From: Candidatus Gottesmanbacteria bacterium
GTDB taxonomy: Bacteria > Patescibacteriota > Microgenomatia > UBA10105 > UBA927
DNA length: 64,000 nt
Direction: 5' to 3'
NCBI GenBank assembly: GCA_023245335.1
Contig: JAHFKK010000001.1
Coordinates: 156,152 to 220,151, forward strand
Shown here: positions 323 through 50,899 of the stretch, in pieces
Position numbering within the stretch: the stretch's first letter is position 1
How the letters are laid out: every line of letters starts with the position of its first letter
Position numbers and translations under genes: made by a program
Notes under the pieces: model-generated
Seen by the model: only the letters and a program-made list of their open reading frames with translations
Told to the model about the DNA's origin: nothing
Databases searched by the model: none

Positions 323-2056
323 CTAGGATCGATGTGCACTGGATTGATTCGCATTCATGCGTACAACTTCAGAAACTGTCGTCACCTCATGAGGGCCTTT
401 ATCTGTTCGTATACGGACAAGTCTTGGAAATCGGACCGCAAACCCGGCACCGTGATTTGGTGATTTCGTCAAATCATCGCCTGCCAGCTCGACAACAACT
501 TTAGGAATAACCCAAACGTCCGGAACAAGCGCTTTATTTACGTCAGCATACTCCGGAGGCATCTTTCGTATTTGAATAAGGTGTAATTGCCGTCTTATAT
601 CCTTCCAAAGTTTGTCGCTCACACCGGTCCCTATCTTCGTGATTGTTACAAACTGATCACCGCGACGAACGCCGGCCAAAAGTGCTCCGATACCAAATCC
701 AGTGCGTTTCCCCTCTCCCACGTAATATCCCATAACCACAGCATCAATCGTGTCTGTGAGCTTTCCCGTCTTCCCCTCCTCCTCCTTAAACTTTACCCAG
801 CTATATCCTCGCCGACCAGGTTCATACGGGCTATTCCATTTTTTTACTACCACTCCTTCAAGGCCCTTTTTGAGTTGCGCATCATGGTACTCCCGAAGTA
901 TAGCGGGGTCTTCTGTAATAATTTGCGGCGAAAGCACGAGGAGTTTTTTTGTGACAAGCGTCCGTTCGAGTATTTTCCTGCGATCGGATAACGGCACGCT
1001 CAGGAAATCTTTGCCGTCTTTATAGAGGATATCGAATACAAAGAATTTAAGGGGGACATTTTTTTGTGCTGAAGCTATATCATGCTTCCGTTTCCTTGTG
1101 GTCGTCTCCTGAAACGAAACGAGTTTTCCCGTCGCCGCATCCACTCCGACCGCTTCACAATCGAGAATGGTATCTTGCGTATCGAGCTCGTGCCCGACGT
1201 CCTGGAGCTCCGAAAACATGTCCGTCGTGTTTTCGAGGTTTCGTGAAAACGTTTTTATCTCTGCTTTCTGTGTGCGACTCCTCTCCCTTTTAAAATGAAT
1301 CTGTACCCGCACGCCGTCATATTTTGGCTCGACAGCCACCTCGCCCATCTTTTTAATCATCTCAATAGCATTCGGAAGCCGTTGACACAACTGGGCGAGT
1401 ACCGGAGAGCCGACGTGTGCGCGTATGTGTGAAAGTCCTTTGATTCCGTCCTTTTTTACCGTCTCTGCGATGAATCCGATATCCGGTCGGACATTATATG
1501 CATCCTCAAGCGTCCCCCGCAGTGATTTGTCGCCCGTAAGCATCCAGGAAATCGCGTCCAGAATAGTCATTTCAGAAAATCCCAGGCGTAATTTGTCTAC
1601 GGGTATCCGCAAAACGAATCGTACGGATCGGGCATCGAGGTCATTCAGGATCTCTGAAAGGAGCGCGATCTTTCTCTCTTGAGACCCCTGACCGTTCGCG
1701 GTCGCGACTGCGTAGAGCCGATCATACACGTCGGTCACGTCCAACTTCGCCGTTTTTCCCGTGTGCAGACTCTCTGCGGCTTTTCCCAAATCTCCGTACT
1801 TTTTGAACGCCTTCACTACTTCGTCAACTTCCAGGCTGTATGAAAGCGCGATCGCACGAATAATGAACTTATCTGCTACACCAAACTCTACCGCCTCATA
1901 AAGCGGCACAACCCTTCCCTGCAGGAGGTAGCAAATTTTCCCGATCTCACTGACGTGAGACGTACGAAAAAGGTCAGCGAGAATTTCCGTTATGGAATTC
2001 CTTGAGGTCGTCGCTTCTATTTTTTCAAAATACAAGGAAAGATCGGAAAAGAGCAT
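323..2056 (-). CDS. ATP-dependent DNA ligase (archaeal/eukaryal LigI-like)
   Basis: 577 aa with the adenylation motif I EPKYDGVRVQIH (KxDG), an OB-fold region and a long N-terminal DNA-binding domain. Confidence 0.85.
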   Translation of the reverse strand: MLFSDLSLYFEKIEATTSRNSITEILADLFRTSHVSEIGKICYLLQGRVVPLYEAVEFGVADKFIIRAIALSYSLEVDEVVKAFKKYGDLGKAAESLHTGKTAKLDVTDVYDRLYAVATANGQGSQERKIALLSEILNDLDARSVRFVLRIPVDKLRLGFSEMTILDAISWMLTGDKSLRGTLEDAYNVRPDIGFIAETVKKDGIKGLSHIRAHVGSPVLAQLCQRLPNAIEMIKKMGEVAVEPKYDGVRVQIHFKRERSRTQKAEIKTFSRNLENTTDMFSELQDVGHELDTQDTILDCEAVGVDAATGKLVSFQETTTRKRKHDIASAQKNVPLKFFVFDILYKDGKDFLSVPLSDRRKILERTLVTKKLLVLSPQIITEDPAILREYHDAQLKKGLEGVVVKKWNSPYEPGRRGYSWVKFKEEEGKTGKLTDTIDAVVMGYYVGEGKRTGFGIGALLAGVRRGDQFVTITKIGTGVSDKLWKDIRRQLHLIQIRKMPPEYADVNKALVPDVWVIPKVVVELAGDDLTKSPNHGAGFAVRFPRLVRIRTDKGPHEVTTVSEVVRMNANQSSAHRS

Positions 2057-10585: not shown

Positions 10586-12451
10586 CTACCTGATTTTCGC
10601 GCCCTTTGGCATGCCTTCAGCAGAAATAAACAGCGGTTTTAATTTATCCGCTGAATCCACAGCTAAAATCATCCCCTGACTCTCTTCATCCATCATTTTC
10701 CTTGGTGCCAGATTGGTAATGAAGAAAAACTGCTTGCCGACAAAATCTTCCGGCGTATACCCGAATCCCCGAACACCGGTAAATATAATACGCGATTTGT
10801 CTTCAGCAATATCCACCACTAATCGAATGAGCTTTTCGCTCCCCTCTTTATTTTTCGCCTCAAAAACCTTGCCGACACGGATCTCCATACGTGCGAACTC
10901 TTCTATGGAAAGGGTCGACCCGGCGGTAAGTTTGGCGTATCCAAAAAATGAATAGCTATTTGTAAGACCTATGGCCTCCCGCGCTCCAGTCATCGTCTCG
11001 ATAGCAATAGCCGTTGCACGCTCCTGTCCGCGTTTCAGGATATCCTTAACTATTGAGGGGTTGGCTTTCAGCTCGTCATACGCTTTTCTTGCAGGCGCGA
11101 AGTACATCACCAGGCATTCAAATAAGTACTTCTTGACGTCTACGTCGGCGACCGCTCCCTGTTTGTAGCTTTCTTTAAGTTCGGACACCTTACCGGGTTC
11201 ACCGAAAAAATCCAAGTATGTAAATACCATATTCCCCTCGATGTGTCCCGGGTCAGTTGCGTGCTTCCGTGCGGGGTCCGTAAAAGTGCCATGTACCTGC
11301 TTTTCTATGACTGCTTCGGGCTCAAACATACTAATAATGTTTCCGAGCGTCTTACTCATCTTTCGTTTGCCGTCAGTGCCTAATACCACAGCGACTTCTT
11401 CCGGGATGTAGGGCTCTGGCAATGTAAAAACTTTCTTCTTATAAATTTTGTTGAAGCGCTCTGCAATGTCGCGGGTAATCTCTATATGTTGTTTCTGATC
11501 CTTCCCTACCGGAACGAGATCTGCCTGATATAAAAGAATGTCCGCGGCCATAAGCATGGGATAACTGAACAACCCGACGTTAATGTCATCTTCCATGACA
11601 TCTTTCTGCAATTTATCCTTATAAGCATGCGCGCGCTTGAGAAGTCCCAACGGTGTCACGTTATTGAGGATAGACTGACACTCGGTATGCATCGGTACGT
11701 CAGACTGACGGAAAAAAACGATTTTTTCGAACTGCTCTTTTGTCAAAAATCCTTTCAGAAGTGCCAATTCGTTTAGTACTAACGCCTCGACGTTATGCTG
11801 CAGCTGTTTTTTATCTTGTATCGTCGTCAATGCATGCAGATCAGCGACCATGAGATACGTCTCGTTCGTTTTGGAAAGCTCAATAAATTGCCGCACGGCG
11901 CCAAGATAGTTACCTATATGTAGTGACCCGTCGCCGCTCGGGGTAATGCCCGAGAGGCAACGTTTTCCACTCGGTGCTTCTTGTGTGTGGTCAAAAAACG
12001 TAAAGTCCCCAACCTGTCCATGGTTTACAAAAACTAAATCCTTCGCCTCCATTGCCATACCCATCGTCTTTATTCCCCCAGTCCCGTACGCTTTGCCGAT
12101 GGACAAAACTTTTTCATCCACATAATAGGAAATGTCTAAACCGAGGTATGGTACAAGACCCACTTCTGTCCCCAATGAATGCAAATCTTCCTTGGATGCG
12201 AACACTAATTTTTTCACTCCGGCTACTTTTTTGAGTTTTTCTTGGTCAATCTGTGTATCAGCCCGCTTCGTTACCCCGATTATTCCTTTTTCCGTACGGT
12301 ACAAAATCGTTACCATGGCATTTTTCATTTTTATCCCATGAAACGCTGCGTGGGACGGGACATCCGGCGCCAATTCTTCCGGCAACGGAATGAATGTGTA
12401 TTCAACCTTTTTATCATCCAGAATATTTTTGATTTTGTCTTTAAGATTCAT
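10586..12451 (-). CDS. trpS: Tryptophanyl-tRNA synthetase with N-terminal YbaK/ProX-like deacylase domain and C-terminal Trbp111/EMAP-like tRNA-binding domain
   Basis: The class I core has HIGH-like SLHIGNYLG and KMSKT (RKMSKTLGN), with TrpRS-like GITPSG. The N-terminal ~150 aa resemble the YbaK editing fold. The C-terminal ~110 aa, EIRVGKVFEAKN...GMILA, form an OB-fold tRNA-binding domain. The start was placed at ATG 12451, which is preceded by GGAGA. The ORF-track start 12526 lacks an RBS. Confidence 0.8.
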   Translation of the reverse strand: MNLKDKIKNILDDKKVEYTFIPLPEELAPDVPSHAAFHGIKMKNAMVTILYRTEKGIIGVTKRADTQIDQEKLKKVAGVKKLVFASKEDLHSLGTEVGLVPYLGLDISYYVDEKVLSIGKAYGTGGIKTMGMAMEAKDLVFVNHGQVGDFTFFDHTQEAPSGKRCLSGITPSGDGSLHIGNYLGAVRQFIELSKTNETYLMVADLHALTTIQDKKQLQHNVEALVLNELALLKGFLTKEQFEKIVFFRQSDVPMHTECQSILNNVTPLGLLKRAHAYKDKLQKDVMEDDINVGLFSYPMLMAADILLYQADLVPVGKDQKQHIEITRDIAERFNKIYKKKVFTLPEPYIPEEVAVVLGTDGKRKMSKTLGNIISMFEPEAVIEKQVHGTFTDPARKHATDPGHIEGNMVFTYLDFFGEPGKVSELKESYKQGAVADVDVKKYLFECLVMYFAPARKAYDELKANPSIVKDILKRGQERATAIAIETMTGAREAIGLTNSYSFFGYAKLTAGSTLSIEEFARMEIRVGKVFEAKNKEGSEKLIRLVVDIAEDKSRIIFTGVRGFGYTPEDFVGKQFFFITNLAPRKMMDEESQGMILAVDSADKLKPLFISAEGMPKGAKIR

Positions 12452-12527
12452 ATTTTCTCCTTTGATATTACCATTACTTTCGTTTTGGCGCCCCACCGAT
12501 TTAGGGTAGGGCGCCTCGTACGACATT

Positions 12528-14334: not shown

Positions 14335-14337
14335 AGG

Positions 14338-14409
14338 CGGGCGAGGTAGGCTTCGATCCTACGACACGAGTTTTGGAGACTCGCGTTTTTCCAACTAAAC
14401 TACTCACCC
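14338..14409 (-). tRNA. tRNA-Trp (anticodon CCA)
   Basis: Hand-folded from the minus strand: GGGTGAG TA GTTT AGTTGGAA AAAC G CGAGT CTCCAAA ACTCG TGTC GTAGG ATCGAAG CCTAC CTCGCCC G. It has a 7-bp acceptor stem with one GU pair, GG in the D loop and anticodon CCA. T-loop position 54 is A, which is atypical. CCA is not encoded. Confidence 0.75.
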
Positions 14410-14737: not shown

Positions 14738-15037
14738 ATGACGTCTATGGATATCGGAAAAATTTCATACTGGTCCCGGAGAATCCACCGCATCTCATTG
14801 TTTTTCGTCACTGGCCTAGGGCTCGTACAAGTCGTTACCGGCCTGACGCTCAAGTACCCGACCATGATGTCATTCATAAACTATGAATGGGCGTTTCAGG
14901 TGCATATCTTCACGAGCGTCTATTTTGCCGTATTTTTCGTCATTTCCATGATCACTGGCCTTATCATGTACTTCGCGCCATGGCTTCTTAAATACTTCAA
15001 TAAACCCGGAATCCCCCCCACGAAACTTCCGAACTGA
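14738..15037 (+). CDS. Small hypothetical membrane protein (2-3 TM)
   Basis: 99 aa, strongly hydrophobic. TATAAT at 14734-14739 lies just upstream. An alternative start at 14747 (MDIGK) is possible. Confidence 0.35.
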   Translation: MTSMDIGKISYWSRRIHRISLFFVTGLGLVQVVTGLTLKYPTMMSFINYEWAFQVHIFTSVYFAVFFVISMITGLIMYFAPWLLKYFNKPGIPPTKLPN

Positions 15038-15088
15038 CTTTGCGCGGGTTCTCCGTATACGCTATAATACAAAAGTACATTCACGTAC

Positions 15089-15158
15089 CGCGGGGTAGTG
15101 TAAAGTCGCACAGGAGGCTCATAATCTCCTAGGCCGGGTGCGATTCCCGGCCCCGCAA
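15089..15158 (+). tRNA. Initiator-like tRNA (anticodon CAU) with atypical D and T loops; possible tRNA-fMet or pseudo-tRNA
   Basis: Hand-folded: CGCGGGG TA GTGT AAAGTC GCAC A GGAGG CTCATAA TCTCC TAGG CCGGG TGCGATT CCCGG CCCCGCA A. The acceptor stem (CGCGGGG/CCCCGCA with a C1-A72 mismatch and A73) and the anticodon loop CUCAUAA are identical to E. coli tRNA-fMet. However, the D loop is only 6 nt and lacks G18G19, T-loop position 55 is G, and only 2 of the 3 G-C pairs of the initiator anticodon stem are present. Confidence 0.5.
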
Positions 15159-15170
15159 CACAGTACGGAT

Positions 15171-16136
15171 CTATTTGATAATTGAACCAAACTTCGTCAT
15201 AAAATCCTCTGTCAACCGCGTCATTCCTTTTGCGTTCAGATGGAATCCGTCAGCAAATGTATATTCCGCGCTGTAGGATGCAACCATCGGTGAATCTCCT
15301 GGGTCCGTCGGGTTGCGCTCATAATCACGTTCATCCAACTGATAATTCACTTCCAAAAGCTTCACATTGTACTGTCCTGCGTACCGTTTGATATGTTGAT
15401 ACAATATTCTTGATAACAGTTGTTTATCGCTCCCCTCCTGTCGGATGGCGTCTTGCAATCTGCGCCACACCAGTCGTAACCGCGGATTATCATATGTCGC
15501 AAAGCGCTCCGGTTTCCGAAGTTGTACTAGAGCGTTTTGATCGCCCACAGTAAATAATGGCTTAGTACCGCTCGTGGTGAAGCAAGGCAATAACGCTCGC
15601 CTATCCTCATTTGCATCCCGATAATCCTGATCTTCTATAAAATCCAAAATAACGAACGTCGGCCTATATTTCGGTATCACCTGTTGAAGACGTAAGTAGG
15701 CTTGATCCAACCCGTATCCTTGTACGGCAAGGTTGACTACCTCATATCTATCGCCAACCTTCTGTTGTAGTTTATAGCCGAACGTATCTCTGAAGTTTAA
15801 TCCGTCTCCGAAAAGTGTTGAGTCGCCTATAATTATAATGATCGGCTTCGTGAAATCAGTCGCGTCCTGTATGTCCTCCGCTCTGTATCCTTCACCGTTA
15901 AACGTATATGTCACGCCGTCAACTACCGTTGATTTTGAGGGCACATAACTCCATCCGGTTATCGGATCAAAGCGTCCGGTTTTTGATTCCGTGACGCCGT
16001 CAACGGTCTTACAACCGATATATGGATAATGGAGAAACCGCAGCGTCACTTCTGCTGAAAGAAGTCCAACGACTACTCCGACAATCAATAACGCGATGGG
16101 CTTCTTTGCCATATGGGATAATGGATGACGCATCAA
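15171..16136 (-). CDS. SGNH/GDSL-type hydrolase, membrane-anchored
   Basis: N-terminal TM and the block IIIIIGDSTLFG (GDS(L) catalytic serine). The stop overlaps the start of the upstream deacetylase gene by 4 nt. Confidence 0.55.
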   Translation of the reverse strand: MMRHPLSHMAKKPIALLIVGVVVGLLSAEVTLRFLHYPYIGCKTVDGVTESKTGRFDPITGWSYVPSKSTVVDGVTYTFNGEGYRAEDIQDATDFTKPIIIIIGDSTLFGDGLNFRDTFGYKLQQKVGDRYEVVNLAVQGYGLDQAYLRLQQVIPKYRPTFVILDFIEDQDYRDANEDRRALLPCFTTSGTKPLFTVGDQNALVQLRKPERFATYDNPRLRLVWRRLQDAIRQEGSDKQLLSRILYQHIKRYAGQYNVKLLEVNYQLDERDYERNPTDPGDSPMVASYSAEYTFADGFHLNAKGMTRLTEDFMTKFGSIIK

Positions 16137-17121: not shown

Positions 17122-17193
17122 CGCCAGGGTAGCTCAGTGGTAGAGCAGCATCTTCATAAGGTGACGGTCGTGGGTCCGACCCCCACTCCTGGC
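17122..17193 (+). tRNA. tRNA-Met elongator-type (or tRNA-Ile2-lysidine) anticodon CAU
   Basis: Hand-folded: GCCAGGG TA GCTC AGTGGTA GAGC A GCATC TTCATAA GGTGA CGGTC GTGGG TCCGACC CCCAC TCCTGGC A. It has a G1-C72 pair and no initiator features. T-loop position 55 is C, which is atypical. Confidence 0.75.
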
Positions 17194-17220
17194 ACATATG
17201 GCAATAGACGTGTGTCAGAT

Positions 17221-18849: not shown

Positions 18850-18889
18850 CAGATAACGGCTTCATAATCTATAATTTAGCTAAGGAAAC

Positions 18890-19044
18890 GAAAAGCGACT
18901 GAATCCCGCCAGTCACGGGATAAGCTGCAAACTGAACAGAGAGTAAGTTTGCCGGGTAAGCCCGTCACCGCTCAAGCGAGAAGTAAATAAGGTGGTACCG
19001 CGAATGTCCGTTCGCCCTTATAATAGGGATGAACGGATTTTTTT
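18890..19044 (+). promoter_or_regulatory. T-box riboswitch leader, Val specifier (GUA), controlling valS
   Basis: A specifier-loop-like CAGAGA-GUA-A lies at 18937-18946. The T-box consensus AAUAAGGUGGUACCGCG is at 18986-19002. A terminator hairpin UCCGUUC...GAACGGA plus U7 at 19007-19044 directly abuts the valS ATG. Confidence 0.55.
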
Positions 19045-21342
19045 ATGGATAAAAACTTTGATTCGAAGACGGCTGAAGAGGGCATATATCGGACGTGGGA
19101 ATCCGGAGGATACTTCACTCCGGCCATTGACCCGAAGAAAAAGCCGTTCACCATACTCCTACCTCTCCCTAACGCAAATGACCCCATGCATATGGGTCAC
19201 GCCATGTTTACTGTGCAGGACATCCTCATCCGTTATCACCGCATGAAGGGTGACCCGACATTATGGCTACCCGGAGGCGATCATGCAGGCATAGAGACGC
19301 AATATGTATTTGAAAAACGACTCGCGAAAGAAGGAAAAAGCAGATTCCAGTTCGACCGCGAGACGCTCTATACGATGATCGAGGCATTCGTCGAGCAAAA
19401 CAAAACCACCAACCGCGATCAAATGAAGCGCCTGGGCTTCTCAATGGACTGGTCACGATACCGCTACTCTTTGGATCCGGATATTGTAGCAACGGTACTG
19501 GATACATTCCGAAAAATGCATGAAGACGGTCTTGCCTATCGGGACTCCAGACTCGTCAACTACTGTACGAAGGACGGCACAGGATTCTCCGACCTAGAAG
19601 TTCTCTATGTCGAACGTACCGATCCTCTGTATTACATGAAATACGGACCGTTTACCGTAGCGACCGTCCGCCCAGAAACGAAATTCCGCGATACCGCTCT
19701 CGCCGTCAATCCGAAAGATAAACGCTACAAAGATGCGATAGGAAAGACATATGAAATCGTGGGGCTTTTGGGGCCGGTCAAAATGACGGTCATCCCCGAC
19801 CCTGACGTCGATCCCTCTTTTGGCACCGGAATTATGAAAGTCACTCCGGCGCATGACCCGCATGATTTTGAACTCGGGAAAAAATTTAATCTACCGGTCA
19901 CGCCGATTATCGATCAACGCGGACGCATGGACTTCGCGTGGTTTCTCACCCAACAGGATAGTAATCCTAAATATCGGGAGCGCGCAGAAAAATATCATGG
20001 CAAAAAGGTGGCTGAAGCGCGAGCGATCATGGTTGAAGACCTTAAGGCAGACGGATTACTCATCAAAATCGATGAAAACTATGTACATCGGATAGGCACA
20101 TGTTATCGTTGCGGATCAGTTCTGGAACCGCTCCCGATCCCCCAGTGGTATGTCAAAACAAAACCGCTTGCTAAAAAAGCAATCCGGGCAGTCAAAGACG
20201 GAAAGACAAAAATAGTTCCGAAAAAAAGATTTGAGAAGATGTATTTTGACTGGATGAATAACATTCTCGACTGGAACATCAGCCGCCAGATTGTATGGGG
20301 ACCGCGCATACCGGTCTGGTATTGTCTCGATTGTAACCCGGATATCACTATTAGTTTTATCGACAAACAACTAGCGAAAATCTTCGGCGATTACAAAAGC
20401 ATTATTTCCAAATATCAATTTTCCGATCTGAAGAAGGGATTACAATCGCTAAGTGCCCCGCTCCATGCGACATATTCACTCTCACCTGAGCCATGCCAAA
20501 AATGCCATAGCACACATGTTCTTCAGGAAACCGACACCTTCGACACCTGGTTCCTTTCCAGCCAGTGGCCTATGACCACGTTGGGGTTTCCTGACAGCGC
20601 GGACTTCAAATATTTTTATCCAACCTCTGTTTTGGACACCATGTGGGATATATTATTTTTCTGGGTGGCTCGCATGATGATGATGGGTCTCTATCGTACC
20701 GGAAATATTCCGTTTGAGGTTATCCATCTTCACAGCCGCGTCGTAGATCAGCATGGTAAAAAAATGAGTAAAAGCAAAGGCAACGTCATGAATCCTATCG
20801 ACATGGTCGACAAATACGGAGCGGACGCACTTCGTATGGCGCTCATATATGGGGCGGCGCCCGGAAGCGACATCGCCATCTCCGAGGACAAAATTCGGGG
20901 CATGAGGAACTTTGCCAACAAACTCTGGAACATGGGCCGGTTTATCCATATGAACATCGACGCCACAGGAAAAGAAATCCCGTTTTACGACAATGAATTT
21001 CATAAAACGCTCACAGACGCCAATGACAAACGGATCATTTCCGAACTCAACATGCTGACTGCGGGCGTTACCAAGGATATCGAGCGATACCGGTTTTCCG
21101 ATGCCGCTCAGGCGATCTATGAGTTTGCCTGGCATCGGGTGGCCGACGTCCATTTGGAAAAAAATAAGGACCGTTTCAAATCGGGCGATATCCAAGCAAT
21201 TACGGTGTTACGGCATGTGTATATCACACTTCTCAAATTGCTTCATCCGTTCATGCCGTTTGTCACCGAATCCGTATGGGCGACATTCCCGCGCAAACGC
21301 ACGGAACCTCTCATCGTCTCTTCCTGGCCAACTGCAGGATAG
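19045..21342 (+). CDS. valS: Valyl-tRNA synthetase (short form, no C-terminal coiled-coil)
   Basis: Class I HIGH (PMHMGHA) and KMSKS (KMSKSKGN). A ValRS-type N-terminus (YRTWESGGYFTP), an editing domain and a T-box(Val) leader upstream. Confidence 0.85.
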   Translation: MDKNFDSKTAEEGIYRTWESGGYFTPAIDPKKKPFTILLPLPNANDPMHMGHAMFTVQDILIRYHRMKGDPTLWLPGGDHAGIETQYVFEKRLAKEGKSRFQFDRETLYTMIEAFVEQNKTTNRDQMKRLGFSMDWSRYRYSLDPDIVATVLDTFRKMHEDGLAYRDSRLVNYCTKDGTGFSDLEVLYVERTDPLYYMKYGPFTVATVRPETKFRDTALAVNPKDKRYKDAIGKTYEIVGLLGPVKMTVIPDPDVDPSFGTGIMKVTPAHDPHDFELGKKFNLPVTPIIDQRGRMDFAWFLTQQDSNPKYRERAEKYHGKKVAEARAIMVEDLKADGLLIKIDENYVHRIGTCYRCGSVLEPLPIPQWYVKTKPLAKKAIRAVKDGKTKIVPKKRFEKMYFDWMNNILDWNISRQIVWGPRIPVWYCLDCNPDITISFIDKQLAKIFGDYKSIISKYQFSDLKKGLQSLSAPLHATYSLSPEPCQKCHSTHVLQETDTFDTWFLSSQWPMTTLGFPDSADFKYFYPTSVLDTMWDILFFWVARMMMMGLYRTGNIPFEVIHLHSRVVDQHGKKMSKSKGNVMNPIDMVDKYGADALRMALIYGAAPGSDIAISEDKIRGMRNFANKLWNMGRFIHMNIDATGKEIPFYDNEFHKTLTDANDKRIISELNMLTAGVTKDIERYRFSDAAQAIYEFAWHRVADVHLEKNKDRFKSGDIQAITVLRHVYITLLKLLHPFMPFVTESVWATFPRKRTEPLIVSSWPTAG

Positions 21343-23624: not shown

Positions 23625-24188
23625 TCATCCGCGCTCGAGGTAGGTACCGGTCTCAGGATCTATCCCGATGACGTCTCCAAATTTGATAAATAACGGAACG
23701 GTAATCACGGCTCCCGTCTCAACCACAACTGTTTTTGTCGCGCCGCTTGCGGTATTACCCTTTGCACCCTCTTCCGCCTCTGTTACTTTCAGCCATACTT
23801 TTTTGGGAAATCTTATACCCACTGCTTCTTCACCATAGACGAGTACCTGATAAGCATCATTCGGTTTCAAATACTTGATGAATCCTTCCAACAACCCCTC
23901 GGAAATATTGTATTGTTCATAACTGAAGTTATCCATGAACACGTACGAATCGCTTTCTTTATAAAGATATTGCATCTCCCGAGTGTTGATGGGGAGCTCC
24001 TCGGCCGACTCACCGGATTTAAAAGTAAACTCCTGCACTTTTCCTGTTTTCAGACTTCTTAGTTTTGTGCGGACAAAGGCAGACCCCTTGCCGGGGTTGA
24101 CGAACTGCATGTCGGTTATAAGATGTGGCACATCCTTAAACTCGATGAACATGCCTTTTTTAAACTGGGCGGTCGTAATGGTTGACAT
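23625..24188 (-). CDS. efp: Elongation factor P
   Basis: MSTITTAQFKKGMFIEF...VNPGKGSAFVRTKL, with the conserved PGKG lysine loop. The start was trimmed to the internal ATG at 24188. Confidence 0.85.
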   Translation of the reverse strand: MSTITTAQFKKGMFIEFKDVPHLITDMQFVNPGKGSAFVRTKLRSLKTGKVQEFTFKSGESAEELPINTREMQYLYKESDSYVFMDNFSYEQYNISEGLLEGFIKYLKPNDAYQVLVYGEEAVGIRFPKKVWLKVTEAEEGAKGNTASGATKTVVVETGAVITVPLFIKFGDVIGIDPETGTYLERG

Positions 24189-24256
24189 AAAAAAAACCCT
24201 TATGGCATTCGGGGATTCTATTATCCCACGCACGCTCAAGAATCGCAAGCTAAATA

Positions 24257-24841
24257 CTACTGTTTCGTGCCAAGACTCGTTGGGGTGTGTCGCCGCAAAA
24301 TCAAATAGATAATCCCACAATCCAATCCGATGACATAAAGAGGATAAGCCAACTCACTCACGGTCCGTTGATTGAGAGCCGCGAGTGTGCATAGCGCCGC
24401 CAACACGTCGAGAAAATAAAATGTCCAGACCTCGGTTTCAGGAAGTCGATAGGTTTTCACTAGCATAGGAATTTGTCCGACGAAATCCGCACTTATTGAC
24501 GCCATAAATCCATACATCGGATCTGATGTCGCACGCCAAAAAAATATCCCAATTACGGAAATAACAAGGCAAACGATATCTGTTTTCGCCCATCCGCCCA
24601 TGCCTCGCGGGATACTTAAAACGAAAATTATAAGTGATCCTAACGCGAATATCACCGACAACCAGACAGCAACAGTACTCCCCTGTGCAAACAACGCTAT
24701 CATGGCGAGTGTCGTAATGACCGCGGTACAAAATCGTGTCGTCCGATGCGGCTTTGCTTCGCCCCGAAAAATTGCAACGACATAGACAACATAAGAAACA
24801 ACGGCAAATATGCTACTCAGCATAATGAGTGCGAATCTCAT
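24257..24841 (-). CDS. Hypothetical polytopic membrane protein (~6 TM)
   Basis: 194 aa, highly hydrophobic, lying between efp and epmA. Confidence 0.45.
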   Translation of the reverse strand: MRFALIMLSSIFAVVSYVVYVVAIFRGEAKPHRTTRFCTAVITTLAMIALFAQGSTVAVWLSVIFALGSLIIFVLSIPRGMGGWAKTDIVCLVISVIGIFFWRATSDPMYGFMASISADFVGQIPMLVKTYRLPETEVWTFYFLDVLAALCTLAALNQRTVSELAYPLYVIGLDCGIIYLILRRHTPTSLGTKQ

Positions 24842-24844
24842 AGA

Positions 24845-25906
24845 TTATTGAAATAATTCATCTGCTGGAAATAACAAGGTATCCTGTATCCTTGCGGCAT
24901 TTGCAAACAACATAACCAATCGATCAACTCCCACTGCTATGCCGCTGCACGCCGGGAGCCCAATCTTTAAAGCGTCAATAAAATTGTGGTCATAATCATA
25001 CATTGTTTTTCCAAGCCGCTTGATCTCTTTCAGCTCATTTTCAAATCGCTCCTTTTGTTCCTTCCAGTCAGTCAACTCACTGTAGCAATCACCAAGCTCC
25101 AGACCCTCAATGTAAAACTCAAATCGTTCTGCGAACCGGAGATCCGACGATTTCTTTTTGGCGAGGGCCCCCATAACGCCTGGAAATTCATAGAGAATCG
25201 TCGGGCGGGATTTTCCTAAATGTGGTTCTATTTCATTGAGAAAAATTTGATTATAGAGTTCTTCCCACGTTGTCTTCTTCTCTACGGAATATCCTTTCTT
25301 TCGAGCGATGTGTCGGGCGGTTGGTTCGCGCAAAAAATTATCGAAGTCTATATGTGCCCATTTAGCGAACGCTTCCACAATGGTTAATCGCTCCCAGGGG
25401 GATGCCAGGTTTACGTGGTGATCCTGATACACAAGTTCTTCCGGATGTTTCGTTTCTTCTCCGGGGGTTGTTCGTTTTAAGTAGGTGTTGATGAATACCA
25501 ATAGTTCTTCACAATCTTCCATGATGTCCCGGTAATCCGCGCCGACGCGATACCATTCAAGTATCGTAAATTCGGGGTTGTGGAGTGTGCTTTGCGTCTC
25601 CATATTGCGAAAGCTTTTCGTGAGTGCGTAACAATTTCCAAGACCTGCGACTATAAGTTTTTTGAGCGGCACTTCCGGCGATGTTGAGAGGTATGCTTTG
25701 GTCGGTTTCCTGTTGCGGTCTAAAAGCGTCGTCTCAAATATATCCAGGTAACTTTCTGCGGGTGGACGCGCGATAAGAAGCGGTGTTTCCACTTCATGAA
25801 ACTGCCGATTGAAAAAAAATGTGCGAATTGCCGTGATAACTTTTTCCCGGATGAAATACCGTTGCCACAACTGAGGATTTTTATTGAGCATCTGCCATGT
25901 TTTCAT
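24845..25906 (-). CDS. epmA: EF-P--(R)-beta-lysine ligase EpmA (GenX/PoxA; LysRS class II paralogue)
   Basis: Class II motifs FHEVETPLL, FRNMETQSTLHNPEFTILEWY and GLPACSGIAVGVDRLVML. It aligns block by block with E. coli EpmA and has no anticodon-binding domain. The start was trimmed to MKTWQ. Confidence 0.8.
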   Translation of the reverse strand: MKTWQMLNKNPQLWQRYFIREKVITAIRTFFFNRQFHEVETPLLIARPPAESYLDIFETTLLDRNRKPTKAYLSTSPEVPLKKLIVAGLGNCYALTKSFRNMETQSTLHNPEFTILEWYRVGADYRDIMEDCEELLVFINTYLKRTTPGEETKHPEELVYQDHHVNLASPWERLTIVEAFAKWAHIDFDNFLREPTARHIARKKGYSVEKKTTWEELYNQIFLNEIEPHLGKSRPTILYEFPGVMGALAKKKSSDLRFAERFEFYIEGLELGDCYSELTDWKEQKERFENELKEIKRLGKTMYDYDHNFIDALKIGLPACSGIAVGVDRLVMLFANAARIQDTLLFPADELFQ

Positions 25907-25958
25907 AAGGATGTTCGCATTACTCGTAGGATAATTATACGTCAACAGAACAAGAACA

Positions 25959-26231
25959 TTACTTTGAGCGGCGGCGTTTCGGCGGGGGGCTTTTTGGCGA
26001 AGAAGAAAATGCTTTTGCCACAAAGATAAGATATAGGATTTCAATGATACCGGCTGTGTGCACAACCATGAAAAGTATAAACCACCATTTCTCATTACGC
26101 TTCGCTGCATTCCAAAGCGCGAATCCCGTCCATACTACAGACCATAAAGCAAGAAGTATGAATCCTCCGAAAAATGGATTGCCTCCTCCCCATGCATTAT
26201 TTCCTAACCACCATGGCATACTGTTCATCAT
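25959..26231 (-). CDS. Small hypothetical membrane protein (uncertain; overlaps epmA 5' end)
   Basis: MMNSMPWWLGNNAWGGG... with two TM helices. It overlaps the modelled epmA start by ~50 nt, so one of the two starts is probably wrong. Confidence 0.25.
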   Translation of the reverse strand: MMNSMPWWLGNNAWGGGNPFFGGFILLALWSVVWTGFALWNAAKRNEKWWFILFMVVHTAGIIEILYLIFVAKAFSSSPKSPPPKRRRSK

Positions 26232-34143: not shown

Positions 34144-34599
34144 TTATGCTTCTTTTGGCTTCACGAGAAGAACGCGGTCGTCTCCTTCGCCGATTGATTC
34201 AGTCGCCACGCGCTCGTCACCGGAAAGCGTGAGGTGGATGATGCGCCGCTCAGAAGGAGAGAGCCGAGATAATTCTACGGGCCGCCCCATCGCCAAGGCC
34301 CGTTCCGCCGCATGTTGCGCCATGTGCATCAGCGTCTCTTCGCGTTTTTCCCGGTAATCACCAACGTTTACGTATACCTTCACCCACTGGCCAATTTTTT
34401 TGGAAACGATAATTCCCAATAGGAGCTGAAAACTCTCCAGCGTCTTCCCGTGATGACCAATGAGTAAACCAGTTTCTTCTGTCTCGATCCGGACCTGGAA
34501 AGCGCCCGTTTCGTCCGTGCTCACGGCGACCGTACCGGAAATTTCTAACTTACCCAGCAACTCCTCAACGATCGTTTGTACTACTTTTATGTCTTCCAT
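34144..34599 (-). CDS. KhpB/Jag (KH + R3H RNA-binding protein)
   Basis: KH-like VGDYREKREETL and an R3H block LSPSERRIIHLTLS. Located directly downstream of yidC as in the conserved jag position. Confidence 0.75.
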   Translation of the reverse strand: MEDIKVVQTIVEELLGKLEISGTVAVSTDETGAFQVRIETEETGLLIGHHGKTLESFQLLLGIIVSKKIGQWVKVYVNVGDYREKREETLMHMAQHAAERALAMGRPVELSRLSPSERRIIHLTLSGDERVATESIGEGDDRVLLVKPKEA

Positions 34600-34667: not shown

Positions 34668-35510
34668 TCACTTTTCCGCATTTATGCGGAGCTGTTGCAT
34701 GATACCAAAAAGTCCAAAAACGTTCCAGTAGAGAGCTAGTCCCAACGGGAACTGATACGCAAACACGCCAAACATAAGAGGGGTAATCATCGCCATTTGT
34801 TTCTGCATCTCAAGCGCGGTATCTTCCGGATTTTGTTCTTTTTTCCCGTCTTTCTTTTCTGTGGCGTTATCGTTTTTCTGACCGATTTGTATCTTTTTAT
34901 TGTCTACAGGGGCGGAGACTGTCTGTTGTGGCATCATCAATTTACTCTGCCAGTACTGAAGGGCTGCGGTAATGACGGGAATTGCCAGGAGCCACCATCC
35001 GTGTGATTGCCACTGACTTGGCTTTATTCCAAGGCTGATACCGAAAAAGGAGAGATCCAAAACGCTAATTTTAAGTGACGAGAGATACACCACGTGATTG
35101 ATGTCACTAACCACCTTCGTCATATTTCCGTTTTGCAAAACCTGATAAAACACATTGTAGAGCGCGATGAGGACGGGCATTTGGATGAGAAGGGGGAGAC
35201 ACCCTGCCGCTGGGTTTACCCCGTGTTGTTTATACAAATCCAATTGAGCCTGTTGCAGCGCTTGTTTATTGTCTTTGTGTTTTGCAGAAAGTGCGTCAAG
35301 GTGGGGCTTGAGCTGCTGCATTTTTTTTGCAGATTTTAACTGTGCCGCCATAAGAGGGTAGAGAAGAAGGCGGATGACAATGGTAAGTCCGATAACCGCA
35401 AATCCCAACGGGCCGGGCACATGCAGCCATTCAAAAAACTTATATAACGCCATGAGAAGATTAATGATGGGCCAGATAAGTAGCTGATTCCACACGTTTG
35501 GGTTTGTCAT
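34668..35510 (-). CDS. yidC: Membrane protein insertase YidC (short form)
   Basis: YidC/Oxa1 core with conserved TM1 (IGLTIVIRLLLYPL) and MQQLKP..L..K motifs. Confidence 0.85.
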   Translation of the reverse strand: MTNPNVWNQLLIWPIINLLMALYKFFEWLHVPGPLGFAVIGLTIVIRLLLYPLMAAQLKSAKKMQQLKPHLDALSAKHKDNKQALQQAQLDLYKQHGVNPAAGCLPLLIQMPVLIALYNVFYQVLQNGNMTKVVSDINHVVYLSSLKISVLDLSFFGISLGIKPSQWQSHGWWLLAIPVITAALQYWQSKLMMPQQTVSAPVDNKKIQIGQKNDNATEKKDGKKEQNPEDTALEMQKQMAMITPLMFGVFAYQFPLGLALYWNVFGLFGIMQQLRINAEK

Positions 35511-39165: not shown

Positions 39166-40740
39166 CTAGACTCCTGGGGTCTTTTCAAACACAACAACGT
39201 TTGTGGTTTTAGACAACGCGCGGACTTCCCGAATGACATAGTTTTTCCAGCGCAATTGATACGGACCCACACACTCAGAGAGGACCTTGGCTTCATCGAA
39301 CTTGTCGCAAACGAGATATACAAGTGGGTGATTTTCTCTTACACGACGATCCGGTTCGTTTCCGAGAAGCACGAATTTTACAGGATAATTTATTGACACA
39401 TGCAGTAAATAATACAGGGGTTCAGCAAAAAAATCGTACTGATCTTCCGGACGAAAAAGGTGCACGCCAATATCACGGGTTTGCGTTTTCCGGTAAACCA
39501 TGTCCTTTTGAATCGTCGACATAAGCACTTGGGCCGCCTCATACTCTCTCCTTGGGTGTGTGATGGTGGTCGTCCACCACGAGGCGGCGTTCCCAACGAC
39601 AAAAATAAAGAGGGCAAAAAAAATAATACCGCGGCGGGGGTTGTTGTGTTGTATGATCCACAGGTGAACCCACCGCGCGCATAGCACAAAAATAATTGGG
39701 TATAACGGAAGAAATCGATATGCCGGCATTTGCATACCAAACAATGCCGGGAGCACAAAGCCGAGAAACGCCCAGTGGTACCCAGAACGAAAAAACCCCT
39801 TAAACGATGACACGAATGTCTTTTGGCTGCCCATTATGCTTGTGACGACCACAATGGCCCCAATAAGCACCCTTAAGACTCTGCCCGCCTCTCCCCCCGG
39901 AGTGACCGTCCAAATTCTCACCACATCCTGTACAACGGTCGTCGCGAAAACAAAGGCAAGCGTCGTTGCCTGATACCACGTGGCGAGATGTGTGGCTTGT
40001 CGTATAATGCTCAACGTGTTGGTCTGTTGTAATGACACGCTCTGCATTACCCACGGGCCAAAAACAGCAGTAAACATTCCGCCGAGAAGGAGAAAGGACA
40101 AAAGGGCGCCGTAGCGTCTCGCCAGTCCACCAAATGAACGAAGGTGTGAGAAGGATCGCATTAACACAAACAACGCAAGGAGCGCGGGTGTAGGGTAAAA
40201 CGCTATTGCGAATACATAGAGCAGCACCCCGAAGCAATACACCCACAAATTCTTTTTCCGGAACGCAACCTCTGTCACCGCAAGATACGCACAGACAGCA
40301 ATCATTGTGGGAAATGGATTCCAAATCGACCTCCCATGCTCAATCATGGACGCAGACGTCATCACAAAAAATAGCGTCCAGATCCCTGTCCAGACGTCAA
40401 AACGCAGGAAGGCATAATAACCGACAAGTAGTCCGCTCAATACGCTCAAAATGATATATTCCGACGAAATTCCGCGGGGATCTGCGCTGACCACTTCAAG
40501 CGCGGCGACAAAATAATACAACAGCGGGTGAATGCTTCCCCCTTCAAACGTTATGATTGGCCCGGCGAGCGGGGTGTGATGGCTATAAATAATTTTGTGT
40601 GCGGTGAGAAGAAGGTCTCCCTGATCATCCATATAGTACATAGCCTGATCGCGGTTATAAAGGCGGAGGAATAACCCCACCAAAACCAACAAAACTCCAA
40701 TAACCAGGGGCATCGACAGTTTTGACCTCATCATCGTCAT
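39166..40740 (-). CDS. GT39/ArnT-like (PMT family) membrane glycosyltransferase
   Basis: Polytopic N-terminal region with a DD motif (YYMDDQGD) near the first loop and a C-terminal soluble domain. The start was trimmed to 40740 so that it does not overlap the dnaA promoter. Confidence 0.5.
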   Translation of the reverse strand: MTMMRSKLSMPLVIGVLLVLVGLFLRLYNRDQAMYYMDDQGDLLLTAHKIIYSHHTPLAGPIITFEGGSIHPLLYYFVAALEVVSADPRGISSEYIILSVLSGLLVGYYAFLRFDVWTGIWTLFFVMTSASMIEHGRSIWNPFPTMIAVCAYLAVTEVAFRKKNLWVYCFGVLLYVFAIAFYPTPALLALFVLMRSFSHLRSFGGLARRYGALLSFLLLGGMFTAVFGPWVMQSVSLQQTNTLSIIRQATHLATWYQATTLAFVFATTVVQDVVRIWTVTPGGEAGRVLRVLIGAIVVVTSIMGSQKTFVSSFKGFFRSGYHWAFLGFVLPALFGMQMPAYRFLPLYPIIFVLCARWVHLWIIQHNNPRRGIIFFALFIFVVGNAASWWTTTITHPRREYEAAQVLMSTIQKDMVYRKTQTRDIGVHLFRPEDQYDFFAEPLYYLLHVSINYPVKFVLLGNEPDRRVRENHPLVYLVCDKFDEAKVLSECVGPYQLRWKNYVIREVRALSKTTNVVVFEKTPGV

Positions 40741-40804
40741 ACGGATATAGTAGGACACATCGGGCCTTTTTGCACCCGCCTTCTCCCAACGCGGTTGATG
40801 TCCT

Positions 40805-40850
40805 TGACAAAGAGTGGATTGTTGTCTAGTATGTGGAAAAGTTTTCCACA
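40805..40850 (+). promoter_or_regulatory. dnaA promoter (TTGACA-N17-TAGTAT) with palindromic pair of DnaA boxes
   Basis: TTGACA at 40805-40810 and TAGTAT at 40828-40833. TGTGGAAAA/TTTTCCACA inverted DnaA boxes at 40833-40850, just upstream of the dnaA start at 40870. Confidence 0.5.
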
Positions 40851-40869
40851 TTCTGCTCCGGGTCTTCAT

Positions 40870-42237
40870 ATGGATCTAACACGACTTTGGAAATCGGTGC
40901 TGTCGGAAATTGAATTATCGGTTTCAAAGGCCACGTATCAAACGCACTTTGCGCATTCCCTTTTGTTGTCCCTGGATGAGGGTGTCGCGTCAATTGCGTT
41001 TCCAAGCCCCCTCATGCGAACACTTGCTGAAACCCGCTACTACAGTCTTATTAAAAATATTCTTGACCACAAAACCGACGCCAATACAAGCCTTGTTTTT
41101 TCTGTATTACCAAGAAAAGAGCCGTCGGAAAAAGACGCGGGGCCGCTTTTCTCTCAAACCATGGACCCGACCCCCAACACAAACGTGCTCGCAAAAAAAC
41201 TTCACATAAACGCGGAATTGCGATTTGACAACTTTGCGGTCTCGACGACAAATCAACTCGCGTACGCCGCAACCACCGCGGTCGCCAAAAATCCCGGGTC
41301 GGCGTATAACCCCTTGTTCCTCTATGGGGGGGTGGGGGTGGGGAAAACGCACCTTATGTACGCAATAGCAAACGCGCTTCTCGCCAAAAAGCCCTCCGCG
41401 CGCGTTGTCTACTGCATGGGAGAGGAGTTTTTGAACGAAATTATTGAGTCGATTCAAATGCGTTCAACCCGACAGTTCAAACAAAAATATAGGGGGGCGG
41501 AACTTCTAATGGTTGATGACGTACAATTTATCGCCGGCAAACAAACCGCGCAGGAAGAGTTTTTTCATACGTTTAATGCCGTGCTTCGCGAGGGGGGGCA
41601 GATCCTTCTCACCTCAGATCGTCCGCCGCATGAAATTTCCCGGCTTGAAGACCGGCTGAGAAGCCGGTTTGAGGGCGGCCTTATTGTTGATATTTCCCCT
41701 CCGGACTTCGAGCTTCGGGCTGCCATCGTCAACATCAAATCCAAGGCTTTGGGCGTTACGGTTCCTTCTGATTGCGCACAGCTTGTCGCCGCAAACGTCG
41801 TCGACGCGAGAGCTATTGAGGGTTTTTTGCGGCGCCTGACGACAGAGCTTGCCACAAAGCCACAACCCATAACCCCAGAGCTCATATCGGGTCTTCTCAA
41901 CGCAAAGTCCGTATTTACCAATCACGCCCAAACCCCAAGGCGGGTATCCCCACAAGAACTTATGGATGCGGTTTCTCTTTATTTCAACATTAAGCCCACA
42001 CAATTAAAGGGCCCGAAGCGCGACCGACCCATCGCCAGGCCCAGACAGGTATTTATGTATCTTGCCAAAACCGAACTTGGGATTACGTACGAAGACATTG
42101 GTGGGTCCCTGGGGGGGCGGGACCATACGACCATTATGCACGGGGTAAACACAATTACCCAGGAGTTGTCCACAAACGAGGCTCTCCGGCAGGCGGTGGC
42201 GGGGATAAAACTCAAATTATGGACTCCCTCAATATGA
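40870..42237 (+). CDS. dnaA: Chromosomal replication initiator DnaA
   Basis: AAA+ region GGVGVGKTHL, LLMVDDVQF, sensor motifs and a C-terminal DNA-binding domain (GGRDHTTIMHG). The start was trimmed to MDLTRLWKSVL. Confidence 0.9.
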   Translation: MDLTRLWKSVLSEIELSVSKATYQTHFAHSLLLSLDEGVASIAFPSPLMRTLAETRYYSLIKNILDHKTDANTSLVFSVLPRKEPSEKDAGPLFSQTMDPTPNTNVLAKKLHINAELRFDNFAVSTTNQLAYAATTAVAKNPGSAYNPLFLYGGVGVGKTHLMYAIANALLAKKPSARVVYCMGEEFLNEIIESIQMRSTRQFKQKYRGAELLMVDDVQFIAGKQTAQEEFFHTFNAVLREGGQILLTSDRPPHEISRLEDRLRSRFEGGLIVDISPPDFELRAAIVNIKSKALGVTVPSDCAQLVAANVVDARAIEGFLRRLTTELATKPQPITPELISGLLNAKSVFTNHAQTPRRVSPQELMDAVSLYFNIKPTQLKGPKRDRPIARPRQVFMYLAKTELGITYEDIGGSLGGRDHTTIMHGVNTITQELSTNEALRQAVAGIKLKLWTPSI

Positions 42238-42415
42238 ACTTTTCCACTTATACACAATTCTCTACGATTTATCCACAAAAGTATCCCCCTTTCTTTTCCG
42301 GGGGTTTCCCTTTTTATCCACAGCTTTCCTCGCTGGTTTGTCCCGCCGTTGACATACAAGCCAAAAAACCATACACTTTTCCACGCCTTATTCTTACTAC
42401 TACTACTTTTGGTAT
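42238..42415. promoter_or_regulatory. Putative oriC (dnaA-dnaN intergenic): DnaA boxes + AT-rich unwinding element
   Basis: TTATCCACA at 42269-42277 and 42314-42322, TTTTCCACG near 42376-42384, then an AT-rich stretch at 42390-42440. Confidence 0.55.
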
Positions 42416-49388: not shown

Positions 49389-49399
49389 AAAGATATGTG

Positions 49400-50725: not shown

Positions 50726-50899
50726 ATCTTACTTCATTGTAGAGGGAAAAAAATTAGGGTTCAATAGCACAAAGCGCATCAGGACCGTGAAAACTCCATT
50801 TTTTAGTTTTCACGAAATTATGAGTAAGAATATGTCCAAGTCGTTTGCGGGTAGGGGCGAGCGCATCTTCTCCCACAAATGATGTGCTAGAATGAAGCT

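Follow-up and report, generated by a model that had tools for sequence, protein, structure and literature searches.

A putative initiator tRNA of a Gottesmanbacteria-like bacterium in which an A18-G55 elbow contact probably replaces G18-U55

The DNA considered here is a window of 64,000 nucleotides from a Candidatus Gottesmanbacteria bacterium, a member of the Candidate Phyla Radiation (CPR). On its forward strand, at 15089-15158, lies a gene of 70 nucleotides that reads as a tRNA with the anticodon CAU. The gene quite probably encodes a functional initiator tRNA of a Gottesmanbacteria-like CPR bacterium in which the elbow contact G18-U55 has been replaced by A18-G55, with the pair G19:C56 kept. 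Judged by its sequence, it would be a new natural variant: an initiator tRNA with a compact core, an anticodon stem of the type au/GC/gu and an A18:G55 elbow of the YGNRA type (Y, pyrimidine; R, purine; N, any nucleotide). In canonical tRNAs, G18 stacks between R57 and A58 and bonds with pseudouridine 55, and G19 pairs with C56 (PMC7912444). Virtually all cytoplasmic tRNAs are regarded as having the contact between G18 and pseudouridine 55, and in yeast screens function is abolished by single mutations of it (PMC4117946).

The 70 nucleotides read CGCGGGG UA GUGU AAAGUC GCAC A GGAGG CUCAUAA UCUCC UAGG CCGGG UGCGAUU CCCGG CCCCGCA A. The gene and its parts are as follows.

15040-15068, forward strand: probable promoter, with TTGCGC at 15040-15045, a 17-nucleotide spacer and TATAAT at 15063-15068 (read from the sequence and from comparison with orthologs)
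15089-15158, forward strand: initiator-type tRNA(CAU) gene, tRNA positions 1-73 (ARAGORN, Rfam, fold and 13 orthologs)
15089-15095, forward strand: 5' strand of the acceptor stem, CGCGGGG, pairing with CCCCGCA at 15151-15157
15098-15111, forward strand: D arm, stem GUGU/GCAC with U11:A24 and U13-G22 (sequence and alignment)
15112-15130, forward strand: anticodon arm, stem GGAGG/UCUCC, loop CUCAUAA, CAU at 15120-15122 (sequence and family covariation)
15134-15150, forward strand: T arm, stem CCGGG/CCCGG, loop UGCGAUU at 15139-15145 (compensatory changes at three T-stem pairs)

The acceptor end has a mismatch between C1 (15089) and A72 (15157), followed by A73 at 15158. CCA is absent from the gene, and CAC comes after A73. 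The D loop AAAGUC (15102-15107) has 6 nucleotides when U13-G22 is counted as a pair, and contains A18 at 15104 and G19 at 15105. At the anticodon arm, A26 (15112) pairs with U44 (15130), and the stem includes A29-U41, G30-C40 and G31-U39. The T loop is assigned as U54, G55 (15140), C56 (15141), G57, A58, U59 and U60. It departs from the signature U54-U55-C56 at position 55, which is G; U54 and C56 are present.

An initial annotation, made from the letters alone, had described a 70-nucleotide cloverleaf with a 6-nucleotide D loop and a T loop TGCGATT containing G55, and had proposed an ARAGORN run and a comparison with orthologous loci. The loops are as described, and the cloverleaf was recovered by three methods. 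ARAGORN calls a tRNA-Met(CAU) at 15089-15159 on the forward strand, as one of three tRNAs in the window; the others are a tRNA-Trp at 14336-14409 on the reverse strand and a second tRNA(CAU) at 17123-17195 on the forward strand. Rfam family RF00005 matches 15089-15158 over its full length (model positions 1-71) at 45.2 bits, where the gathering score is 29. A cloverleaf is also the fold of minimum free energy, with z = -2.7. The gene is intergenic, between open reading frames (ORFs) at 14738-15037 (forward) and 15171-16136 (reverse), and the TATAAT box lies 20 nucleotides upstream of tRNA position 1. The TTGCGC-17-TATAAT site was missed by a scan for the promoter consensus, with which its first hexamer agrees at only three of six positions.

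Related genes were collected in two ways. Relatives were found through a scan of species-representative genomes for TrpRS. Metagenome contigs were found through the pattern AGGCTCATAATCT N{20,30} CCCCGCA, which fixes the lower anticodon stem and loop together with the 3' acceptor strand and matched at least 120 contigs. ARAGORN was then run on the window and 199 loci (L001 to L199; 1.93 Mb in total, the metagenome part being the matches listed). It found 363 tRNAs, of which 121 are initiator-like, with 93 distinct sequences.

Evidence for the exchanged contact is provided by these 93 sequences. D-loop positions 18-19 and T-loop position 55 occur in three combinations, namely GG with U55 (55 sequences), GG with C55 (4) and AG with G55 (34), and discordant combinations number zero among the 93. 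The 18/55 contact thus appears, from the sequences compared, to obey a strict alternative rule: G18 goes with U55 or C55, and A18 goes with G55. The neighbouring pair G19:C56 is G-C in all 60 family members of equal length, and the alignment column of G19 (column 17) is invariant. Since 18/55 covaries without exception and G19:C56 is invariant, the elbow seems to have been rebuilt, not lost. The initial annotation had suggested, as one of two explanations, relaxed rules for the interaction of the D and T loops. This points in the right direction but is imprecise, as all 93 listed sequences follow the strict alternative rule. It had also noted the absence of G18G19; GG is indeed absent, yet AG is present and its G aligns with the G19 of relatives, so that G18 has become A and G19 has been kept.

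The rest of the T loop differs between the two classes as well. C54 is found only alongside G55 (20/34 listed sequences, against 0/59 of the others). T loops of the G55 class read Y54 G55 C56 R57 A58 N59 Y60 in 33 of 34 distinct sequences, and the loop UGCGAUU of the window fits the same formula, (YGNRA)NY. The tRNAs of L103 and L080 are identical except for the D loop and positions 54/55, and such natural sequence pairs could be used for swap work. AG with G55 can be found on four different D-stem backbones (GUGU/GCAC, GUGU/GCAU, GAGG/CCUC and GUGG/CCAC).

By parsimony, 9 changes between G55 and Y55 are required on each of the neighbour-joining trees of two syntenic proteins, the Xer recombinase (57 loci) and DivIC (53 loci). 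The Xer tree places the window in a clade with 16 other loci, and all 17 are G55. When the tree is built from the tRNA itself, 17-18 changes of state result, a figure regarded as inflated because the tRNA alignment is short; the figure of about 9 from the protein trees is preferred.

In the T-loop motif that recurs outside tRNA, the second position is normally G. Jaeger and colleagues describe T-loops as usually having a "G-clamp (more rarely a U-clamp)" that touches the intercalated base, with tRNA-Phe as the case of a U-clamp (PMC2615604). In a genetic and phylogenetic study of the T-loops of flavin mononucleotide (FMN) and cobalamin riboswitches, UGNRA accounts for 88.7% and CGNRA for 10.9%, giving the consensus (YGNRA)NY; the intercalating base shows "almost exclusive use of adenosine", and tRNA T-loops differ at position 2 (bioRxiv 10.1101/2022.12.26.521914). 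The simplest reading of the sequences would be that the elbow is intact and has switched from the G18/U55 solution to this general A/G solution, with G19:C56 unchanged. A18 is then most likely stacked between R57 and A58 and bonded to G55, because the T loop is a YGNRA loop, the consensus of riboswitch and rRNA T-loops that clamp an intercalating adenosine. The possibility that GCGA forms a closed GNRA tetraloop was dropped, since U54/U59 or U54/C59 would not close it; the 7-nucleotide form (YGNRA)NY fits every variant.

Alternatively, the tRNA may be a functional initiator whose D and T loops are undocked, forming a loose corner as in mitochondrial tRNAs, with the covariation of 18 and 55 arising because a protein reads the two positions. 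This model would suit the very short D loop, the non-standard nature of an A-G pair and the variation at further elbow positions of the lineage, namely C55, A54 and, in a tRNA-Ala, the swap C19:G56. However, G19 and C56 are constant in the 60 aligned members, and in the tRNA-Ala of L197 they change together to C19:G56, as a real Watson-Crick tertiary pair would. U54 or C54 and A58, which form the platform pair of the T-loop, are kept in 33/34 sequences, and the G55 loops have the consensus form of adenosine-docking T-loops. An undocked corner is therefore considered unlikely, and a rebuilt A18-G55 elbow is preferred.

A further question is whether the gene is functional at all, since the initial annotation had raised the possibility of a decaying pseudo-tRNA. 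In such a model, a former initiator gene has partly lost its D loop and is accumulating mutations in its T loop. The departures from consensus at G18 and U55, the short D loop and the lack of an encoded CCA are in line with decay, as is the Rfam score of 45 bits against 57 and 60 bits for the two neighbouring tRNAs. Decay is nevertheless extremely improbable in view of the orthologs. The relatives, whose TrpRS is 63-81% identical, are labelled Candidatus Gottesmanbacteria, Patescibacteria group or Microgenomates, with some binned assemblies labelled generically as uncultured Gammaproteobacteria. These matches assign the window to a CPR/Patescibacteria chromosome of the Gottesmanbacteria type. 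In 13 of the loci L001-L037, ARAGORN calls a CAU tRNA that shares the short D arm. The comparison with orthologous loci thus finds the same gene kept in 13 related species-level genomes, and dozens of metagenome contigs carry near-identical copies too.

These 13 orthologs share the acceptor stem, the D stem GUGU/GCAC, a 6-nucleotide D loop A-N-A-G-N-N, the anticodon arm and a T loop YGCGAYU. Mean column identity among the Gottesmanbacteria-like copies is 95%. Pairs 28-42, 50-64 and 51-63 change on both sides, and pairs that change on a single side number zero among these copies, so that compensatory change has kept all the stems intact. As for the positions that deviate, they are either invariant or strictly covarying, and the mismatch of C1 with A72 is invariant in 14 Gottesmanbacteria-like copies. 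Conservation extends to the flanks: a TATAAT-like box is found 20-25 nucleotides upstream in 12 of the 13 orthologs, and a hairpin with a run of T, resembling a terminator, directly downstream in most. The uniform clade of 17 members likewise speaks against decay. On this comparison, the initiator-type tRNA gene is conserved, not decaying. An error of sequencing in the D loop is also excluded, because 13 independent assemblies carry the same 6-nucleotide D loop and G55.

Most of the 121 initiator-like tRNAs belong to one family with a compact core, consisting of the D stem GUGU/GCAC, a D loop of 5-6 nucleotides and a variable region of 4 nucleotides. In the 60 members of equal length, 97% of the cells in paired columns can pair, and six pairs show compensatory changes (123 cells). 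As a control, the alignment was slid by 1-3 columns, after which only 28-56% of the cells could pair. All four stems of the cloverleaf are backed by covariation in these 60 sequences, and the D stem is 100% paired. U11:A24 is invariant (60/60), and the additional Watson-Crick pair 26-44 covaries, being G-C in 47 and A-U in 13. Throughout the family, both partners change at pairs 26-44, 27-43 and 28-42. The anticodon-stem pairs A29-U41, G30-C40 and G31-U39 are invariant in 121/121 listed members, a region that the search pattern fixed. In many members and in other branches, the Watson-Crick pair U1-A72 replaces C1xA72.

The D loop, which the initial annotation had called truncated, is indeed short. 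It is, though, a trait of the whole family and occurs with either type of elbow. A templated CCA is found in 20/50 genes of the A18/G55 class and in 7/71 genes with G18 and U55 or C55 (initiator-like genes in L001-L199). Structurally unusual tRNAs tend to template their CCA (PMC5143459), and the enrichment in the A18/G55 class fits this published tendency.

The gene has several features of an initiator. Besides CAU at 15120-15122 and the discriminator A73 at 15158, it contains the determinants of formylation C1xA72, G2-C71 and C3-G70, identical to those of E. coli metZ, and in its clade the set is invariant. An alignment with metZ of strain K-12 bears out the earlier statement that the acceptor stem CGCGGGG/CCCCGCA, the C1-A72 mismatch, A73 and the anticodon loop CUCAUAA are as in E. 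coli. The other CAU tRNA of the same loci is elongator-like, with G1-C72 and the loop UUCAUAA; the two are 2 kb apart in the window, and relatives show the elongator in synteny. The description of the element as initiator-like is supported by the metZ-type determinants and by this separate elongator. A tRNA-Ile2 with the anticodon CAU is not needed, because related loci carry genes for tRNA-Ile(UAU).

Circumstantial support for the initiator role comes from L182 260-1564 on a short metagenome contig, where an Fmt-type gene (Formyl_trans_N and Formyl_trans_C) is followed by DivIC and then by an initiator tRNA of the A18/G55 class. The Fmt-type gene lies about 500 nucleotides from the tRNA, and the linkage of the tRNA to DivIC is as in the window. 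Approximate queries for E. coli TruB, Fmt and Def, run by tblastn against the 1.93 Mb of loci, gave one match to Fmt (L182) and one to TruB (L074, an unrelated Peribacteria locus). Pfam annotation covered about 50 of the 60 ORFs of the window, and Fmt, Def, TruB, TrmA, CCA-adding enzymes and initiation factors were all absent from these. The initiator-type tRNA would be expressed and formylated, and it may be the sole initiator of its genome.

Several points weigh against the interpretation of the gene as an initiator with an exchanged elbow contact. The 18/55 covariation is drawn from other lineages, mostly metagenome contigs without taxonomy, because neither A18 nor G55 varies within the Gottesmanbacteria clade. 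The family was selected by a pattern that fixes the anticodon stem and the 3' acceptor strand, so that its counts are not frequencies among all CPR initiators. The geometry proposed for A-G is drawn by analogy. In the window copy, a terminator is not obvious and CCA is not encoded, in contrast to the 9 of 13 orthologs in which CCA follows A73. Three consecutive G-C pairs (29-41, 30-40 and 31-39) are found in E. coli-type initiators, and here only G30-C40 is left; position 11:24 is U:A, not the A:U of E. coli. Finally, the view of the genome is limited to 64 kb, and a second, canonical initiator may lie elsewhere in it.

The last three of these points would also fit a functional tRNA(CAU) other than the initiator, with the true initiator elsewhere. 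Candidates are an elongator tRNA-Met, a tRNA-Ile2 modified with lysidine and a tRNA with a role outside translation. U:A at 11:24 is of the elongator type, and the many family members with U1-A72 in place of C1xA72 would be consistent with such a role. On the other hand, the full E. coli set of acceptor determinants is present, a separate elongator lies nearby, and tRNA-Ile(UAU) makes an Ile2 unnecessary. Initiators with the anticodon stem au/GC/gu occur naturally in mycoplasmas and alpha-proteobacteria (PMC5389676). The stem of the window tRNA is this known natural variant, in which the strict G-C rule fails and a degenerate rule of purine:pyrimidine pairs holds. CAU tRNAs with three G-C pairs number zero in the 1.93 Mb sampled (the window and the listed related loci), leaving no canonical initiator among the matches listed. 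A role other than initiation is thus held to be very unlikely, and the identification as an initiator is retained.

The tRNA can be compared with several known systems. Like E. coli tRNA-fMet (metZ/metW/metV and metY), it is a stand-alone gene with the same acceptor strands, determinants and anticodon loop. It differs from E. coli in the D stem (GUGU/GCAC with U11:A24, against GAGC/GCUC with A11:U24), the D loop (6 nucleotides with A18, against 9 with G18) and the T loop (UGCGAUU, against UUCAAAU). Its variable region has 4 nucleotides with A26-U44 as a Watson-Crick pair, and that of E. coli has 5 with G26/A44. The anticodon stem is au/GC/gu in place of GC/GC/GC, and CCA is not encoded in the copy of the window.

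The variant-stem initiators of mycoplasmas and alpha-proteobacteria are not known to depart from canonical elbows with G18G19 and T-psi-C. Three forms have been described in these groups, au/GC/GC, GC/GC/gu and au/GC/gu (Samhita et al. 2012; Shetty et al. 2016, PMC5389676). The window tRNA resembles them in having three consecutive purine:pyrimidine pairs, of which only the middle one is retained as G-C. They belong to unrelated phyla, and the CPR family adds a compact core to the variant stem.

The T-loops of YGNRA type in FMN and cobalamin riboswitches, rRNA and an ATP aptamer share the form (YGNRA)NY, an adenosine supplied by the partner loop, and a Watson-Crick pair made by position 3 (here C56) with the partner (here G19). 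Those T-loops are not in tRNAs, whereas here the receptor would be a D loop of 5-6 nucleotides, in a geometry derived from theirs. A "specific purine trap" was reportedly described by Doyon, Zagryadskaya, Chen and Steinberg in J Mol Biol in 2004, in suppressor tRNAs selected in vivo from randomised D and T loops. The rule is said to be that purine 18 must be G when position 55 is U, and A when it is G, and exactly this association is seen in the sequences here. Those tRNAs were reportedly laboratory-selected suppressors of E. coli; here the exchange is natural, clade-wide and repeated, and is found in initiator tRNAs. A literature search on peculiarities of the tRNA elbow or the initiator in CPR/Patescibacteria, and on "A18 G55", found nothing relevant.

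Small D loops without the G18G19 or T-psi-C signatures are also known from tRNA-Pyl and metazoan mitochondrial tRNAs. Unlike these, the window tRNA retains G19:C56 as well as the 54-58 pair, and its acceptor and D stems are still separated by two nucleotides. Its elbow therefore appears to have been re-specified, not lost.

A pathway for the tRNA can be proposed. The gene would be transcribed alone from its own TATAAT promoter, and RNase P would trim the 5' end at 15089. After trimming of the 3' end, CCA would be added enzymatically, because the copy in the window encodes none. MetRS would charge the tRNA through CAU and A73. Formylation would follow, probably through C1xA72, G2-C71 and C3-G70, and the au/GC/gu anticodon stem would serve in selection at the peptidyl site. 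In evolution, the T loop would have shifted from the tRNA-specific UUCRA type to YGNRA with an A18-G55 contact.

If so, the most important tRNA of a whole bacterial clade has A18-G55, and the state has changed repeatedly in related lineages, the two positions always moving together. This would amount to a natural covariation proof of the 18-55 contact, together with an alternative solution to it, and would directly link the tRNA T-loop to the YGNRA T-loops of riboswitches and rRNA. There is also a consequence for annotation. CPR initiator tRNAs may be reported as missing or as pseudogenes, because a scan of the whole window with Rfam at the gathering threshold and with default filters listed two of the three tRNAs and missed the 45-bit one. 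It shows up only under laxer filters; the speed filters of Rfam are where it drops out.

A tentative and rather doubtful extension is that the A18:G55 elbow is not a neutral isosteric swap but has been selected, in part of the CPR, as a mark that identifies the initiator. In that case G55, often with C54, would bar modification by TruB (pseudouridine 55) and TrmA (5-methyluridine 54). The initiator could thereby be set apart for, or hidden from, processing enzymes, a toxin or phage nuclease, or ribosomal contacts of the elbow. A continuing trade-off of elbow type against maturation would then lie behind the approximately 9 gains and losses and the more frequent templating of CCA.

The two other tRNAs of the window also deviate at positions 54/55.

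14338-14409, reverse strand: tRNA-Trp(CCA), T loop AUCGAAG with A54 (Rfam scan)
17123-17194, forward strand: tRNA-Met(CAU) of the elongator type, with G1-C72, anticodon loop UUCAUAA and D loop AGUGGUA (ARAGORN and Rfam)

The T loop of the elongator tRNA-Met is UCCGACC, with C55 at 17176. The initial annotation had reported A54 in tRNA-Trp and C55 in tRNA-Met, and both are confirmed. As a trait of the lineage, the deviations fare differently. C55 is recurrent. A54 is sporadic: among related tRNA-Trp genes it is found in that of the window alone (1/12), and is private to this genome. Textbook bacteria show less variation at positions 54/55 than this lineage does.

U54-U55-C56 together with G18G19 is the state of most elongator tRNAs from the CPR loci sampled. 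C55 occurs in 10/17 unique elongator tRNA-Met sequences from Gottesmanbacteria-like loci and in 16/90 from the metagenome loci listed, and in 6/29 unique tRNA-Ile(UAU) sequences from the latter. GG is always retained with C55. Loci with C55 in elongator tRNA-Met or tRNA-Ile(UAU) include L001 2811-2883 and L085 4333-4405. The tRNA types that deviate at 55 are the three that read AUN codons (initiator, elongator Met and Ile-UAU).

G55 is limited, among the sampled loci, to initiator-type tRNAs and one elongator. The latter is a tRNA-Met of elongator type (G1-C72, 9-nucleotide D loop) at L142 2043-2117, in which AGCUAGUUA stands in place of AGCUGGUUA and the T loop is CGCGCAC. It represents an A18/G55 swap outside the initiator family, with C at position 58. 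Another unusual elbow can be found in the tRNA-Ala(UGC) at L197 2292-2367, with the D loop AGUUGCGA and the T loop UUGGAAU, where G19:C56 appears to have been inverted to C19:G56. The UUG T loop recurs in a second, distinct sequence of tRNA-Ala from the metagenome loci. Because the swap in L197 is concerted, the 19:56 pair seems to be under selection in this group.

The genes around the initiator-type tRNA are bacterial housekeeping genes, encoding FtsH, TrpRS with fused domains, DivIC, Xer recombinase, ValRS, EF-P, YidC and DnaN. For a neighbouring ORF of 99 amino acids, an exact-protein look-up gave no recorded match. TrpRS (10586-12526, reverse strand) has an N-terminal YbaK-like editing domain (Pfam tRNA_edit) and a C-terminal tRNA_bind domain similar to the C-terminus of MetRS or to CsaA. 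It is matched over its full length in approximately the first third of the related loci, and in the others only from about residue 180.

A leader resembling a T-box lies at 18889-19044 on the forward strand, upstream of valS (19045-21342). It matches RF00230 at 48 bits, below the gathering score of 93. Its Stem I is strongly shortened to a hairpin of about 25 nucleotides (18904-18930), whose apical loop CCAGUCAC contains GUC, a Val codon. Stem I is followed by the T-box sequence AAUAAGGUGGUACCGCGA and by a terminator hairpin with U7 directly before the start of valS. The same layout is found in L003, L010, L012 and L036, with compensatory changes in the stems and the loop CCAGUCA(C/U). The leader is without the platform of Stem I, the part by which the elbow of the tRNA is normally read.

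The cumulative GC skew has its minimum at about 41-42 kb, beside dnaN (42416-43525), with yidC (34668-35510) and a gene similar to Jag/KhpB (34144-34599) nearby. The region of approximately 41000-43500 is probably the replication origin region. Pfam gave no match at E <= 1e-5 for the adjacent ORFs at 39166-40869, 41107-41457, 41614-42003 and 41979-42359, and a DnaA domain was absent from the window ORFs scanned. Elsewhere, the window encodes HMG-CoA reductase (62695-63858, forward strand), an ATP-dependent DNA ligase (323-2056, reverse strand), EF-P with an EpmA (GenX) lysyl-transferase (23625-26110, reverse strand) and a secretion-like cluster (46775-53074). The cluster combines TraG/VirB4-like and TrwB-like ATPases with a protein of the PrgI family, an arrangement resembling type IV secretion or conjugation.

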